Program-made: the position numbers and the translations under genes
In this document: positions 36,971 to 51,196 of the stretch, one piece after another
Numbering within the stretch: position 1 is the stretch's first letter
Layout: every line of letters starts with the position of its first letter
Notes under the pieces: generated by a model
The model's database searches: none
Seen by the model: only the letters and a program-made list of their open reading frames with translations
What the model was told of the DNA's origin: nothing
Source of the DNA: a virus
Direction: 5' to 3' (one strand)
Virus record (IMG/VR): IMGVR_UViG_3300023179_000038
Coordinates: 46,678-110,677 of that record
DNA: 64,000 nt

Positions 36971-37477
36971 TTATTTAGATTCTAAAACAATCTGTCTTAA
37001 TTTTGATATTAGGGCTTCAATATTATTAATATGAAGTTTATAAAATTCATATTTTGTGTTTTGAACTTGGTCCAACTCATTTGCATATAAAATTTCTAGT
37101 AAAGATAATTGTTTTTGTGGATCTAAATTCATGGAGTTTTTTAAAATAATTTCATTTCGATCTTTTAATGAAAAATAATATACAAGTTCTTCTGCATCTT
37201 TACCTATATAAAGAATCACATCTTCTTTGTTAATTTTATCCTTTAAATTAAATTTTTCAGTACCATAGCAAGAATGATAAAGTCCAGCCAGACATGTTTT
37301 CTCTGAAGCACCCATACTTTTTAATAAAAAGAAAACATTGTATAGGTGTGCAAAAAGAGAACCCCTTAAGTGAGGAATATGTTTTATTTTATCAAAAAGG
37401 TATTTAACTGCTAATACTTCTTTTTCTGTAAATTTAATTTCTTTTTCTGTAAAGTTAATCATTATTAATTTATCCAA
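36971..37477 (-). CDS. HD-like DUF6817-type protein
   Basis: HLRGSLFAHL...CLAGLYHSCYGTE...IGKDAEELVYYF...ANELDQ. Confidence 0.65.
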   Translation of the reverse strand: MDKLIMINFTEKEIKFTEKEVLAVKYLFDKIKHIPHLRGSLFAHLYNVFFLLKSMGASEKTCLAGLYHSCYGTEKFNLKDKINKEDVILYIGKDAEELVYYFSLKDRNEIILKNSMNLDPQKQLSLLEILYANELDQVQNTKYEFYKLHINNIEALISKLRQIVLESK

Positions 37478-37480
37478 AAA

Positions 37481-38227
37481 TTATCTATAAGATTTTTTGT
37501 GCCAAAAAAATCTTTTATACCCAGAGTTAAATACACTTCTTATATTTGCTGTTATATTTTTAACTTGAGAAACTTTTTCTTGTGTTTCTATATATTCTGA
37601 TTCGTATTCTTCTCTCTTAAATGGGATTATTTGCAATAAAGGTGTTCCTTTTGAAACAACGCCTTTAAAATTCTTTTTTACTAAAAAAGACATTAAACCA
37701 TTAGATGGATAGGTATCAGTATCAATTATTGCAGATATTGTAAATAATGGAGAAACTTCTTGATGTTGTGGTTGTATAAAGAGTGTGCTATATCCAGGAT
37801 CGGTTTCAACAGCCCAAATAACATTTACTCTAAATAAATACTCAATGTATTGGTCTTTGTCAAATGGATATCCAGTAACTTGTTTAATATCATGATTTCC
37901 AATTAAAGCCTTGTTTCCAAGACTAACAAACGTTTTCATTACTTCGGGAATATCAAAGTGTGGATTATCTCCAGTTGTATCTATATATATATCAAACGGT
38001 GCCTTTATTATATACCCACTTGAAAGCATATCTAAAAATGCAATACATCTTTTAACAGTTATTTGCTGATGACCATTTACTGGTGTTGTATCGTTATTAT
38101 AAAAACTTTCAAGTTTTTTATACCAAATTGGTATATTTTTTGAAGCAGGTTCTGGAGCAGGAAAAACATTTTTTATTTTTGGAAAAGTGTTAATAAACCT
38201 AACTACTGAAGGCCTGTTTTTTTTCAT
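37481..38227 (-). CDS. Hypothetical beta-rich protein (DUF6065-like)
   Basis: PEPASKNIPIWYK, TVKRC, W..ETDPGYSTLF, GTPLLQIIPFKRE. Confidence 0.5.
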   Translation of the reverse strand: MKKNRPSVVRFINTFPKIKNVFPAPEPASKNIPIWYKKLESFYNNDTTPVNGHQQITVKRCIAFLDMLSSGYIIKAPFDIYIDTTGDNPHFDIPEVMKTFVSLGNKALIGNHDIKQVTGYPFDKDQYIEYLFRVNVIWAVETDPGYSTLFIQPQHQEVSPLFTISAIIDTDTYPSNGLMSFLVKKNFKGVVSKGTPLLQIIPFKREEYESEYIETQEKVSQVKNITANIRSVFNSGYKRFFWHKKSYR

Positions 38228-38271
38228 ATTAACAGTATATCACAATAACTAAATTGGATAAATATGTTATA

Positions 38272-39441
38272 TTAAGCAGGAGTACTTGGAGTAAAGTCTT
38301 TTACAAGCATTTTCTTAGTAAAGAAGTTATCATATGGCTCGCAGTTTATAGCAACTTTTTGCATATATAATTCTACAGCCTCAACAAGTTCAATATCAAC
38401 AAATGCATTGTCTTCAAATGAATATCTTTGATATGTTGTATCTATTTGTGATGATTGAATAAACTTTACAACGCCATCTTTTTTAGTTAAAATCCAGTGT
38501 GTATTAGAAAACATATCTCCATCAATGTATACGAAGTCTGTTTCTGTTTGAATACCAATCCATGTAATTGTAGTTTCAACAACATTTAAATCTGATACAT
38601 TTACGTTTGAAGGAAGTGTCCAATTTTGCCAATATGCTGCAGAGTTATCATTAGACTCATCTCCAAGATCTAAGGCTAAAAGTTTATCTCCAACTTGAAG
38701 TTGACCAGCAGGCTTTGTTGCTTGTGGTTCACCTGCAACTGTTGATAAAAGAACTTCTGTATTTATGTTTAGTGACCAGTCAAAGCCAAATGCACCAAAA
38801 GCACCAAATGCACCAAAAGCACCGAAAGGTGCAAAGGAAAATGTTGTAGTTACGTTGTTTGAGTTTGAAGATGTTCCAGAGTTTCCATTGGCATTAGTTG
38901 CACGAACGTTATATGACTGTGCAGTTCCTTGCTCTTGTCCAACGTCAACAGATGTTGATGATGTATTTCCAGATTTACCATCTGTTGATTGCCAGAAATA
39001 ATTAGTTATTGCGCTACCACCGTTATTTGGCGCTGACCAAGAAATTCTGTCAACTCCAGCAGATGGTGATGATGCTGAAGGCGCTGAAGGTGTTTGTGGT
39101 ACGGTTGTTGCAGTAATGCTATTAGACGCAGCAGATGCTGGAGAGTTTCCAACTGCATTTGTTGCTACAACTGTAAATGTGTATGCTGTGCCTGATTGTA
39201 GACCAGTTACAGATATAGGAGATGATGCTCCTGAAGCAGTATATGATCCTGGAGAGGATGTTACTGTATAAGATGTAGCAGCAGGGCCTGATGAATCATG
39301 TGTAAAGGTTACATCTGCTCGTCCATTATTAAATGCACGTCCCGATCCAACATTTGTTGCTGATACTGAAGTTGGTGCCTTTGGCTCCAAAAAGTCATTT
39401 GATGCTTGGGACTTTTTACCTGATTTTTTACCTGCTGCCAT
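38272..39441 (-). CDS. Fn3-domain protein with (FGA)n repeat and C-terminal Hint-like domain
   Basis: Two Fn3 units (VTGLQSGTAYTFTVVATN); FGA repeats; SLNINTEV..LQVGDKLL..SNTHWIL..INCEPYDNFF Hint blocks. Confidence 0.75.
   Translation of the reverse strand: MAAGKKSGKKSQASNDFLEPKAPTSVSATNVGSGRAFNNGRADVTFTHDSSGPAATSYTVTSSPGSYTASGASSPISVTGLQSGTAYTFTVVATNAVGNSPASAASNSITATTVPQTPSAPSASSPSAGVDRISWSAPNNGGSAITNYFWQSTDGKSGNTSSTSVDVGQEQGTAQSYNVRATNANGNSGTSSNSNNVTTTFSFAPFGAFGAFGAFGAFGFDWSLNINTEVLLSTVAGEPQATKPAGQLQVGDKLLALDLGDESNDNSAAYWQNWTLPSNVNVSDLNVVETTITWIGIQTETDFVYIDGDMFSNTHWILTKKDGVVKFIQSSQIDTTYQRYSFEDNAFVDIELVEAVELYMQKVAINCEPYDNFFTKKMLVKDFTPSTPA
38783..38840 (-). repeat. 9-bp tandem repeat encoding FGA x4
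   Basis: gcaccaaa(a/t) units. Confidence 0.85.
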
Positions 39442-39473: not shown

Positions 39474-40823
39474 TTAAGCCATTAAGTCGCCGTATACAAC
39501 CCATGTGTTTTCTGCTCTCTTGAAAAGAGTTGCAGATGACCATTGAGTGCGTAACTTTAAGCCTGGTGTAGCATTAACTGTAACTCCAGCAGATGCTGCA
39601 ATTGTAACCTGTCCAGTTGAAGTTTGAAGAATATCAATAGATGTTCCTACTGGATATGCTACTGCAGAGTTTGCAGGAATTGTAATTGTAGTTGCAGATG
39701 ATGAAGCAACTTCAATCAAAGAATCTCTTTCAGTAAGTGATGAAAGTGTATATGAAGCAGATTTTTGAATAATTGGTGTTCTAGATGGTACACCTTCTTT
39801 AGATTGAGTTCCATCTGTAAAGGCTACTCCAGATGCTGCAACTGTTACAAGACCTGTAAATGTTGGAGTATTGATTGGTGCTTTTGCAGCAAGTCCATTA
39901 GTAACTGTTGTTGCAAAGTTTGCATCGTCACCAAGTGCTGCTGCAAGTTCATCAAGAGTATTAAGTGCTGCTGGGGCAGATGCGATTACTGCATTTACCT
40001 GAGATGTTGCATCTGCAATAGCCTCTGACTTAGCAGTTGCGATTGCTGCAGCCTGTGCTGTAGATACTGGCTTGTTTGCATCTGATGTATTGTCAACATT
40101 TCCAAGTCCTACTGAAGACTTTGTAAGTGCTGCTACTGCAGTTGCAATCTTTGAGTCTGCTGCTGTTCCTGCTGCTGTAACTGCATCTGTTTCTGCTGTA
40201 TCTACATAAGACATTGTTGCAAGAAGCGATGTATTTGCAATTCCATGAACATTTGTTGTTTGTGAATTGTGTGTTGAAATCTTTGTATCTGCTGCTGTTC
40301 CTGCTGCTGTAATTGCTGCTGTTTCAGCATCTGAAGCCTTTCCATCAGTATAAACTTTTGTTGCAAGAAGTGCTGTGTCGGCAATTCCATGAACATTTAT
40401 TGTTGCTGCTGTGTGGTCAGATAATTGAGTTAAACTAGCCTTTTGTGATAGGGCAACCAGCATGGTTGATGCAAATGTTGCGTCATCTTCAATTGCTGCT
40501 GCTAACTCATTAAGTGTATCTAATGCTCCTGGAGCACCATCAATTAGGTTTCCTAATTGTGATAAAGGAACTCTTCCTTGTGCGTCAAGTGATGCTACAC
40601 CGTTTACTTGTCCCTTTGTGTCTACTGGAACATAGTCATCTAGGGATCCGCCAAGATCTTCTAAATTTTTAAAATATGATAAATCTTCCCAATGGTTAAT
40701 TCCATCACCAATTTTAAATTGTCCAGTATCAGATTCAAATCCGATTTCTCCTGCTGCCAAAATTGGGTCTGCTGCAGTCCATTGTGCTGCGGTTCCTCTG
40801 CGCTGTTGCATTCTTGTTGCCAT
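39474..40823 (-). CDS. Tail fibre with Mtd-N-like N-terminal domain
   Basis: RMQQRRGTAAQW..DPILAAGEIGFESDTGQFKIGDG; APGALDTLNELAAA repeats. Confidence 0.8.
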   Translation of the reverse strand: MATRMQQRRGTAAQWTAADPILAAGEIGFESDTGQFKIGDGINHWEDLSYFKNLEDLGGSLDDYVPVDTKGQVNGVASLDAQGRVPLSQLGNLIDGAPGALDTLNELAAAIEDDATFASTMLVALSQKASLTQLSDHTAATINVHGIADTALLATKVYTDGKASDAETAAITAAGTAADTKISTHNSQTTNVHGIANTSLLATMSYVDTAETDAVTAAGTAADSKIATAVAALTKSSVGLGNVDNTSDANKPVSTAQAAAIATAKSEAIADATSQVNAVIASAPAALNTLDELAAALGDDANFATTVTNGLAAKAPINTPTFTGLVTVAASGVAFTDGTQSKEGVPSRTPIIQKSASYTLSSLTERDSLIEVASSSATTITIPANSAVAYPVGTSIDILQTSTGQVTIAASAGVTVNATPGLKLRTQWSSATLFKRAENTWVVYGDLMA

Positions 40824-46404: not shown

Positions 46405-47352
46405 TTAAACTAAAACAGATATTTGTTTTTCCCAAAACTCAGAAATATGTAAATGTCTGTGTAGTCCAGGATGTGGCCAATGTGCTCCAGAACCTTTTAG
46501 CCGTCCATAGTTATAGGGGATTTTATGATAGTCATATGCGTGTTCAAATATGTCTGGATATTTATCTTTATATTCTTTATGGCATCCCTGCCAATTTATC
46601 ATTTCAAAATAAGGAGGCAATCCAGATATATTTTCTGGATTACATCCAAACTCAAAGGCTGTAGGAAATTGTGTTTTTGTTGTGTCTGTAACGTAATGTC
46701 TAAAATTATTTTTTAAAAATTTTTCTTCTTTTTCTGTTAATCTATTTGACCATGTAGTCCAAATTAATTTAATATCATTAGATTCACAAAAAGCCTCTAG
46801 CATTTTAATATGATCTAGATTTTGATAATAGACCCACTCATATGGCAAAATTTCTTCATAGTCCCAAGGAGCCGATGCCTTTGTTTTTTTTTCTTTATGA
46901 TTAATGTACCACATGTGCATTGCATTAGCATCTTGGCTAATAAAATAAAATCTTTCAAAATTAGCAAAATGTGCAAGTACTACTTTTGGTTTATATTTGT
47001 ACTGATGAATCATTCCAAAAAAACTTGACACCAATAGATTTGCAGATGCTCCAGAATAAGATATGTTTCCAATGGGCTTATTAATTTTGTCTGAAAGAAT
47101 ATTAGACCATCTAAGGTTTTCTGGCATTCCCTGTCCTAATGTCAATGAGCATCCTAAAACTACAACTTCTGGATTTGTAGAAAATTCTACAGATCTCAGT
47201 CCATCACTATTCCATACATAATTATATTCTGGTCTTTCTATTTCTGAATGTGATGCCAATACTGCATTAGTAACAGAATAATTTGTATTAGGGTATTTTC
47301 TATTGATTCCACAATAAGGAATAACTCTTGGGTTAAATATATCAAATAGCAT
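46405..47352 (-). CDS. SGNH-like hydrolase/acyltransferase-type protein
   Basis: LGCSLTLGQG block I, GAS block II, C-terminal HPG..H. Confidence 0.55.
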   Translation of the reverse strand: MLFDIFNPRVIPYCGINRKYPNTNYSVTNAVLASHSEIERPEYNYVWNSDGLRSVEFSTNPEVVVLGCSLTLGQGMPENLRWSNILSDKINKPIGNISYSGASANLLVSSFFGMIHQYKYKPKVVLAHFANFERFYFISQDANAMHMWYINHKEKKTKASAPWDYEEILPYEWVYYQNLDHIKMLEAFCESNDIKLIWTTWSNRLTEKEEKFLKNNFRHYVTDTTKTQFPTAFEFGCNPENISGLPPYFEMINWQGCHKEYKDKYPDIFEHAYDYHKIPYNYGRLKGSGAHWPHPGLHRHLHISEFWEKQISVLV

Positions 47353-49712: not shown

Positions 49713-50558
49713 TTAGTCATTACATCCAAGGAATACTCCACAACTATTGTAAATGCTTGCATAACCACCGCACCGTGGCTCACCATAAGTATAGTAGTAT
49801 CCGCTACAATTTTGTGCTACTGGAGTAGGTGCTGGAGTAGGTGCTGGAGTAGGTGCTGGAGTAGGTGAAGGTGTTGGTGCTACATATCCACAGAGTGCAG
49901 AATTAGTTTCTATAAGTCTTGGTGGGCAACTGGTTTGATATGTTGTGTCGTATCTATTTTGATATAAGTTATATCCTATACATGAGGTTGCGTCGTCATC
50001 TACACAATTTGGTGCTACTGGAGTAGGTGCTGGAGTAGGGGTAGGGGCTACTGGTGTTGGTGCAGGAATTCCACAAAAACCTCTTCCCAAATACATGTCT
50101 GGACAACTTGCTGGGAATCCTCGTTGATAAACATCTCCGTATCCTTGAGCATTAACATTTAAACAATAAGTTGAACCATCAAGGTAGTCACATGCTACTG
50201 GAGTAGGTGTAGGTACTGGAGTAGGTGTAGGCGCCACTGGAGTAGGTGTAGGTGCTGGTGTAGGTGCTGGTGTAGGTGTTGGTGTAGGTGTTGGTGCTAC
50301 TGGAGTAACACTGTAAACGTAATACTCAAAATCTAGAACTGACTCATATTTTAATAAACTGTTTGTATCGTTTCTACCTTTAACTTTATTATTGTTAGAA
50401 GATGTTGCACCAGAACTATTACCTAATGGAGTTTCATTACCTAAATTAAATCCTGAATTGGTAATTGCCTGTCTTGCATCATTTAAAGATAAACCTTCAA
50501 GGTCTGGAACTCTTCCCATACCTTTTGATGATGCCCACTTGCCAAGGAATCCTAACAT
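49713..50558 (-). CDS. PASTA-like domain + Pro/Thr-rich linkers + Cys-rich modules protein
   Basis: VPDLEGLSLNDARQAITNSGF; three (PT/PA)n tracts separating three Cys-rich modules. Confidence 0.75.
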   Translation of the reverse strand: MLGFLGKWASSKGMGRVPDLEGLSLNDARQAITNSGFNLGNETPLGNSSGATSSNNNKVKGRNDTNSLLKYESVLDFEYYVYSVTPVAPTPTPTPTPAPTPAPTPTPVAPTPTPVPTPTPVACDYLDGSTYCLNVNAQGYGDVYQRGFPASCPDMYLGRGFCGIPAPTPVAPTPTPAPTPVAPNCVDDDATSCIGYNLYQNRYDTTYQTSCPPRLIETNSALCGYVAPTPSPTPAPTPAPTPAPTPVAQNCSGYYYTYGEPRCGGYASIYNSCGVFLGCND

Positions 50559-50566
50559 GGGATTAC

Positions 50567-51196
50567 CTATGCTGTCAAATCGCCAATAAGTATCCAGGTA
50601 TTCGTATCATATTTGATAAGAGTTGCGCCAGAATACCTTGCAGCAATTTTTTTATTAGAATTTTTACTATTAACTGTTACGCCAACGCCTTCAGCAATAG
50701 TTACACCTCCAGTATTTAGTCTTACAATATCCAATCTTTGTCCAGTAGCAAAAGGCATGGAAGAGTTTGGCGGAATAGTAATTGTAATATTGCTATCAGA
50801 ATTTACCAATATTGTTTGACCTGCATCTGAAATATCTAAAGTATAATTATTTGTTTTTACACTTAACGTTGTTGTGTCTAGCATTCCTACCCAAGACGTT
50901 CCATTGTATATTTGAACTTGATTTATATTTGTTCCGCCATTTGTTTGTTCAACAAAACATACTGTTCCCTTTGTTGGAGAGGTTATGATAGAATCTCTTG
51001 TAGATGGATTTTGAAATCTATTAACTCCTGCTTTTGCACGAACAACATCATTAAAGGTTACAACATTTCCAAATGTATGAACTTGTGTCCAGTTATATGG
51101 AACATTAGAATTTGCTACGCCAGCAGCAGCATACCAAGTATCGGTAACTTGATCATACATATATAAAACTTTACTTGTTGAACTAATTGTTGACAT
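50567..51196 (-). CDS. Tail fibre-like protein
   Basis: C-domain NYTL..D...ITIPPNSS.PF..G...WILIGDL paralogous to 39474-40823 C-terminus. Confidence 0.7.
   Translation of the reverse strand: MSTISSTSKVLYMYDQVTDTWYAAAGVANSNVPYNWTQVHTFGNVVTFNDVVRAKAGVNRFQNPSTRDSIITSPTKGTVCFVEQTNGGTNINQVQIYNGTSWVGMLDTTTLSVKTNNYTLDISDAGQTILVNSDSNITITIPPNSSMPFATGQRLDIVRLNTGGVTIAEGVGVTVNSKNSNKKIAARYSGATLIKYDTNTWILIGDLTA

Follow-up and report, generated by a model that had tools for sequence, protein, structure and literature searches.

We analysed a 64,000-nucleotide stretch of viral DNA (the window; positions 46,678 to 110,677 of IMG/VR virus record IMGVR_UViG_3300023179_000038, which comprises 110,677 bp and is 99% complete) and describe here a minus-strand gene at 38272-39441, whose 389-amino acid (aa) product consists of two Fn3 domains, an aromatic low-complexity tract and a C-terminal Hint domain. 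This Fn3-(FGA)4-Hint architecture, proposed in an original prediction made from the sequence alone, is confirmed and does not reflect chance: the combination of aromatic repeats with a Hint domain was seen again in 168 distinct relatives. The domain belongs to a Hint subfamily that had previously gone unmodelled, and we consider it probable, at roughly 60%, that the product is an accessory protein of the phage's tail-fibre module in which Hint acts as a removable C-terminal cap that cuts at Trp222/Ser223.

Fold, residue mapping and predicted cleavage of the C-terminal domain

A Pfam search with the C-terminal domain alone returned zero matches. An AlphaFold model of the domain, built on 47 homologues (pLDDT 83, pTM 0.79; pLDDT <50 in the FG tract), matched Hint folds only. 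Foldseek placed BIL2 of Tetrahymena BUBL1 (6y75) first (E 2e-7, probability 1.00), followed by the Ssp DnaB intein, the C. thermocellum BIL 2lwy, gp41-1 and Hedgehog HhC (1at0). VIA-align superposed 138 residues on BIL2 (Z 18.4, root-mean-square deviation (rmsd) 1.9 Å, 13-15% identity) and gave Z 16-17 for inteins and HhC (HhC itself 16.6), with an overall range of Z 14-18.4 and rmsd 1.6-2.8 Å over more than 50 inteins, BILs and HhC. A profile of full-length homologues compared with PDB sequences was dominated by Fn3, and the comparison was repeated with a domain-only alignment, which weakly matched BIL 2lwy (E 0.004) and the gp41-1 intein (E 0.007); PF14890 Intein_splicing was weakly matched by 7 of 48 homologues (best E 1e-5), and matches to PF13403 were also weak. 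The modelled fold is clearly that of a Hint domain, which bears out what the original prediction had claimed for it.

In the VIA-align superpositions, model residues 24 to 183 correspond to the first to last residues of inteins, so that Ser223 takes the place of Cys1 and Asp382 that of the terminal Asn. The counterpart of Ser223 is Cys258 in Hedgehog and the first residue in the RecA, DnaE and gp41-1 inteins. In low-scoring hidden Markov model (HMM) alignments with the gp41-1 and Pho RadA inteins, the block-F His and Asp are matched by Asp371 and Ala364, respectively, and His-Asn by Lys381-Asp382. The sequence details noted at the outset are likewise present in the 389-aa open reading frame (ORF): the aromatic tract (aa 201-222) directly precedes the domain, which starts with Ser223 (codon 38773-38775) in the string SLNINTEV, retains SNTH as block B and ends in MLVKD, followed by a 7-aa tail. 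Further upstream, the N-terminus shares the pattern MAxxKKxG...NDFLxPxAPT with homologues, Pfam detects Fn3 at E 1e-7, and titin-type Fn3 matches span aa ~40-190, from which two Fn3 domains were assigned. The (FGA)4 tract is encoded by a 9-bp tandem repeat (4.8 copies, 38786-38828, TRF score 65-76).

On this basis, Ser223 would attack the Trp222 carbonyl in an N-to-O acyl shift, assisted by Ser312 and His315 of block B, and the ester would be resolved, most likely by water, with release of the cap. Glu368, Asp371 and Asp382 would form a conserved acidic cluster that occupies the sites of the block-F His and the terminal Asn and could, more speculatively, activate that water. The expected products are a ~22-kDa Fn3-Fn3-FG protein and a free Hint domain of ~19 kDa. 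Splicing is impossible because there is neither a C-extein nor a +1 nucleophile: the 7-aa tail starts with Phe rather than Cys, Ser or Thr, and the domain ends in Lys-Asp rather than His-Asn. With the His-Asn/+1 nucleophile set lost, N-terminal cleavage exposing the FG tail is the expected outcome, and Asn-type C-terminal cleavage becomes irrelevant because only 7 aa would be removed. An intein inserted into a conserved host site was also rejected, as Hint-less orthologues end after the repeat and show no rejoined flanks. The view of the original prediction, that this is a non-splicing Hint domain capable of N-terminal cleavage only, is supported by the retained nucleophile and block B together with the lost C-terminal set.

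The Hint family and its exchange with other C-terminal modules

Conservation was assessed over 168 distinct full Hint domains by position counts and HMM columns. Ser occupies position 1 in 162 domains and Cys in the other 6, so that only nucleophiles occur there, and block B follows [ST]xxH, with [ST] in 95% (159/168) and His in 98% (165/168). The C-E-P-x-D motif is conserved at 91% (C), 98% (E), 99% (P) and 97% (D). The residues for splicing and C-terminal cleavage are replaced family-wide, and the domain ends in [F/H/Y]-Asp, with F in 81, H in 45 and Y in 30 domains at the penultimate position and D in 150, N in 14 and E in 4 at the last (D 150 and N 11 by HMM column). His-Asn ends are restricted to a few distant members (P0047, P0131, L164); such canonical Cys...His-Asn members have tails of 1-4 aa and also carry FG repeats in front. 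Behind the domain lies an unconserved tail (median length 5 aa), the residue following Asp being variable, and the 40 aa upstream of the domain are rich in F (25%), P (17%) and G (17%). An FG tract is probably not an obligate partner of Hint, given that the linker is Pro-rich instead in 21 of the 168 Hint proteins and that Hint is absent from most FG-tailed orthologues. One relative of 1108 aa (P0134) has two tandem C-terminal Hint-like domains (~770-924 and ~945-1105), the second of which weakly matches PF05203 Hom_end_hint.

The family is essentially phage-restricted. HMMER searches against 1.8 billion representatives recovered 95 clusters only, nearly all with the domain at the extreme C-terminus, and 216 IMG/VR stretches contain the family. 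A tblastn search of the Hint protein against 50,697 phage records gave zero matches, and hence zero isolate phages, and 185,579 prokaryote species genomes yielded a single match, on a 10-kb contig of a Lake Mendota metagenome-assembled genome (MAG). Relatives from uncultured Caudovirales are also present in BFVD, where one carries the automatic name 'Hint domain containing protein'. The literature that we found on Hint/BIL domains in phage tail or fibre proteins was confined to inteins in TerL, helicase and RNR and contained no description of this family, which represents a new, phage-specific variant of the Hint/BIL kind.

A search with the Fn3 part alone (aa 1-199) returned 1349 shorter proteins. 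The best Hint-less orthologues (225-260 aa) are 60-83% identical over 100% of their length; 93 of the top 120 terminate within 12 aa of the aromatic run. Hint-less orthologues were also seen at the same locus, after fibA, the Mtd_N-type fibre gene. Among the short proteins, P0139 (83% identical, 237 aa) ends in ...FGFSPPFR, and P0144 ends in ...AAGDW, to be compared with ...GFDW followed by S in the window protein. The exposed FGA tail foreseen in the original prediction agrees with the Hint-less orthologues whose sequence stops right at the FG tail, and the series points to Fn3-Fn3-aromatic tail as the mature functional unit.

Other orthologues carry a different module at this position. Three (P0159, P0165, P0179; N-part 67-71% identical) have Peptidase_S74 directly after the repeat (E ~1e-12), with an SDERIK motif that has the spacing of the Ser-x4-Lys dyad, and others end in a small Cys-rich knob. 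Peptidase_S74 had no Pfam match in the window protein, and an IMG/VR scan seeded with P0159 found zero S74-bearing loci. Further Hint variants behind FG repeats at the same locus include two that start with Cys and end in Ser-His-Asn-Lys (L164:4001-5209, L165:1632-2816) and one, not caught by the family HMM, that starts with Cys and ends in ...VYHLYPID (L099:5001-6245); in the canonical Cys...His-Asn-Lys variants, with their 1-4-aa tails, only the N-terminal junction can matter. Judged from these sequences, the C-terminal module is optional and exchangeable, and two of its forms would be self-processing domains. The repeat DNA may have served as the recombination point for such swaps. Across the window protein and its relatives (L123, L126-L128, L140 and L147, at about aa 195-300 of the Fn3 orthologue; L145), the aromatic tails differ in length and repeat type, with FGAFGFTP, FAFTPYSFTP and (FFP/FFPP)n, the last in runs of more than 100 residues. 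Those with a period of three suggest a polyproline-II-like structure.

Alternative readings and known systems

The position shared with Peptidase_S74 offers a possible purpose for the cap. Peptidase_S74 is a self-cleaving intramolecular chaperone that aids the folding of phage tailspikes and fibres (PMC8326128), and S74 in endoNF and T5 LTF resembles the window Hint in being a C-terminal, self-removing module on a fibre-associated protein, presumably with the same role. The two differ in build and chemistry, S74 being a trimeric helical domain with a Ser-Lys dyad and Hint a monomeric domain that would act by acyl shift, and the chaperone function is proven for S74, whereas for the window Hint it would hold by analogy. 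Hint would thus be a removable cap or assembly aid, functionally equivalent to S74 at the same place.

Several points weigh against a removable cap. The block-F Asp, which assists the first acyl shift in class 1 inteins, is replaced by Ala in the window protein and by Ser in most relatives, and the N-to-O shift at Ser is slower than that at Cys. The presence of Cys-rich knobs, which do not cleave, at the same position implies that the C-terminal module need not be removed. The conserved C-E-P-x-D motif and terminal Asp may point to chemistry beyond simple hydrolysis. To our knowledge, Hint domains have not been described as folding chaperones.

Some of these points would suit a domain that is not catalytic and remains as a permanent structural or receptor-binding knob, a degenerate intein-like fold in which the remaining residues are kept for folding or binding. 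The block-F Asp and His, the penultimate His and the Asn are lost, the non-enzymatic knobs take the same place, and the new conserved motif could be a binding site. Such a knob nevertheless seems unlikely to us, since Ser or Cys at position 1 in 168/168 domains and the block B His in 98% are typical of catalytic rather than structural constraint, the domain always lies at the extreme C-terminus behind a flexible linker, and it is interchangeable with the proven self-cleaving S74 module.

A removable cap shares its first step with a further alternative, in which the Trp222 ester is attacked by a specific nucleophile and the Fn3-FG protein becomes covalently attached to a virion partner (through a Lys or hydroxyl of, for example, the upstream fibre), to a lipid or to a cell-wall amine, comparable to Hedgehog cholesteroylation and BUBL/BIL2 isopeptide formation. 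BIL2 of Tetrahymena BUBL1, the closest structure, makes Lys-isopeptide bonds independently of ATP (PMC8616854), one particular ~100-aa domain closes the upstream gene in 71/71 loci across three genomic positions, the C-E-P-x-D motif and Asp cluster could bind or activate an acceptor, and the N-terminal modules found with Hint (Fn3, PASTA, TSP1) are binding domains. The 7 aa behind Hint leave no adduct-recognition region, however, the cleavage-only S74 can stand in its place, the -1 residue varies strongly among the 168 relatives, and the majority of orthologues lack Hint and simply end in a free C-terminus behind the repeat, which indicates that ligation is not essential to the function of the protein. 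We consider attachment of this kind improbable, and slightly more so its specific form of a built-in ATP-independent ligase whose ester, at the end of the aromatic tail, is taken by an amine or hydroxyl of the upstream fibre or of a Gram-positive host wall. If it were true, an exchangeable Fn3/PASTA adhesin would be welded to the virion or cell in a sortase- or BUBL-like step during assembly or adsorption, and C-E-P-x-D and the Asp cluster would be the acceptor-activating site.

BIL2 of BUBL1 (6y75/6tmm) is the best structural match and, like the predicted cap, processes the module N-terminal to itself; it differs in having Cys1 and Asn143, in lying between ubiquitin-like domains and in forming isopeptide bonds (PMC8616854). 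Hedgehog HhC (1at0) is likewise a C-terminal Hint domain that removes itself from its N-terminal cargo without Asn cyclisation, but it uses Cys1, Asp46, Cys143 and a sterol-recognition region to transfer the cargo to cholesterol, whereas the window domain has a Ser nucleophile, 7 aa after the domain and no equivalent Cys at the +1-like position. Lack of conservation at the +1-like position led us to reject a role like that of Hedgehog C143, and with 7 residues after Asp382 an adduct (sterol) recognition region of the Hedgehog/Hog kind was not found. B-type BIL domains keep the intein N-terminal and block B motifs with a different C-terminal motif (Amitai et al. 2003; Dassa et al. 2004; via PMC7765530), occur in variable regions of non-conserved proteins and are expected to cleave their N-terminal junction without splicing (PMC7765530). 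The window family has the Hint fold and a motif pattern that would fit them, and differs in being phage-restricted, always at the extreme C-terminus, with Ser instead of Cys as nucleophile and its own C-E-P-x-D ... [FHY]-D signature. A-type BILs were rejected because their conserved C-terminal His-Asn is replaced by Lys-Asp in the window. An invariant block-F Cys recalls class 3 inteins, which were rejected as well: F:4 is Ala364, with Cys367 three residues later in the low-scoring HMM alignments, the nucleophile is at position 1 (unlike most class 3 inteins), and there is no WCT motif.

Known roles of Hint domains comprise selfish inteins, Hedgehog processors and the BIL domains of bacterial surface and toxin proteins. 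If the cap is removed as proposed, it would be a second, independent solution for phage fibres with a disposable C-terminal module, in a natural interchange of Hint, Peptidase_S74, Cys knob or nothing. The series from canonical Cys...His-Asn to Ser...C-E-P-x-D...Asp provides a natural set for studying how a C-terminal active site might be rebuilt toward cleavage-only chemistry, and a small, Ser-based, splicing-dead Hint domain might serve as a self-removing tag. The aromatic (FGA / FxFxP / FFP) repeat tail is a widespread, unstudied sequence type in virion proteins.

Locus, neighbouring genes and host

The features of the gene and its surroundings are collected in Table 1. Across 80 related loci that were selected for Hint, the usual gene order is fibC-fibB-fibA(Mtd_N)-HINT-(DUF6065-like)-NrdJ, and wherever the gene directly upstream of Hint was visible (71/71 loci) it ended in the ~100-aa C-terminal domain. 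This domain, which shares ~50% identity with the C-terminal ends of minor tail proteins from Gordonia phages, always precedes a Hint gene or a repeat-rich accessory gene. A second Hint site lies after homologues of 50567-51196 and a third after a short fibA; in the window, the C-termini encoded by 39474-40823 and 50567-51196 are 43% identical.

Table 1. Coordinates (window positions) of the Hint gene, its parts and neighbouring features.
Feature	Position	Strand	Evidence
Whole gene, Fn3-Fn3-aromatic repeat-Hint protein, 389 aa	38272..39441	-	ORF list
Two Fn3 domains, aa ~22-198; would remain as mature protein	38848..39378	-	Pfam PF00041 and titin Fn3 matches
Aromatic low-complexity tract FSFAPFGAFGAFGAFGAFGFDW, aa 201-222	38776..38841	-	9-bp tandem repeat, sequence, pLDDT <50
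Predicted scissile bond Trp222/Ser223 (tgg tca)	38773..38778	-	Alignment with intein residue 1 and Hedgehog Cys258
Hint domain, aa 223-382 (160 aa)	38296..38775	-	AF2 model, Foldseek/VIA-align, weak profile matches
Block B S312-N-T-H315 (TxxH equivalent)	38497..38508	-	[ST] 159/168, His 165/168 relatives
Family-specific motif C367-E-P-Y-D371, block F	38329..38343	-	Conservation and HMM alignments
K381-D382, replacing intein penultimate His and terminal Asn	38296..38301	-	Model residue 183 = last intein residue
7-aa unconserved tail FTPSTPA, no C-extein	38275..38295	-	Sequence
Upstream fibre gene, Mtd_N N-terminus	39474..40823	-	Pfam Mtd_N and tail-fibre PHROGs
~100-aa C-terminal domain of upstream fibre	39477..39776	-	Constant neighbour of Hint genes
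Second copy of ~100-aa fibre C-terminal domain, in 50567-51196	50570..50860	-	43% identity
Gene with PASTA-like N-terminus, PT-rich linkers, Cys-rich modules	49713..50558	-	Follows fibre paralogue 50567-51196
DUF6065-like / phrog_7084 gene, predicted dUTPase-like fold, adjoins NrdJ	37481..38227	-	PHROG E 5e-39; Atlas DUF6065 clusters
DUF6817 gene	36971..37477	-	PF20680 E 4e-18, weak HD_4

The protein encoded at 49713-50558 corresponds in position, and is partly homologous, to second-site Hint proteins but lacks the Hint domain. The parallel that had been drawn between the Hint locus and a cassette at 45-50 kb is limited to the placing of the two repeat-rich proteins, each of which is encoded behind a fibre gene that has this C-terminal domain. 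In three related loci (L005, L012, L019), the gene at the position of 49713-50558 combines FxFTP linkers and TSP1-like modules with a Hint domain at the C-terminus.

The two genes downstream of the Hint gene exist as described earlier, one DUF6065-like and the other a DUF6817 gene. The model of the DUF6065-like protein (pLDDT 83) had only dUTPase/dCTP deaminase structures among its top 22 VIA-align matches (Z 9.2-5.3; next Z 4.4), with weaker Foldseek support (E ~0.01). Its sequence contains IIDTDTY (IIDTDxY), which resembles dUTPase motif 3 (G-x-I-D-x-D-Y) and includes the invariant D169/D171; inspection by eye found no other dUTPase motif. A dUTPase/dCTP-deaminase-like fold is predicted for this protein, which would belong with NrdJ to a nucleotide block. 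In 48 distinct loci not chosen for Hint, the DUF6065-like gene lay within 4 kb in 20 and was missing in 13 of the Hint-bearing loci, compared with 10 and 5 of the Hint-less ones (Fisher p = 0.76), so that it was missing from 13/33 Hint-bearing loci and also occurred beside Hint-less orthologues. It is further present in Halorubrum/Haloarcula viruses and cyanophages of a collection in which tblastn found no relative of the Hint protein. The DUF6817 gene lies between the DUF6065-like gene and nrdJ and had 0 homologues in ~240 related loci, which makes it look like a recent acquisition.

The DUF6817 gene is a genome-specific insertion, and both downstream genes are bystanders rather than credible tailoring enzymes. 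That they form a cassette with the Hint gene and modify the FGA tail after autoprocessing, as had been suggested, is very improbable: the three genes lie side by side in the same orientation in the window, and 59/80 related loci have the DUF6065-like gene behind the Hint gene, yet the suggestion fails on the absence of DUF6817 from the related loci, on the dUTPase-like character (with IIDxDxY) of a DUF6065-like protein whose gene adjoins NrdJ, on its independence of Hint, on its presence in haloarchaeal viruses and cyanophages, and on second-site Hint genes that have no DUF6065-like gene behind them.

The virus is inferred to be a phage of freshwater Actinobacteria, because the nearest relatives of its NrdJ are those of Actinomycetia phage DSL-LC01 (61%) and Mycobacterium phage Gaia (60%), the fibre C-terminal domain is Gordonia-like, PASTA occurs in relatives and the one prokaryotic match of the Hint protein is to the Lake Mendota MAG. 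Some related phages (e.g. L050, L053, L075) carry tandem DUF6065-like paralogues, two in each.

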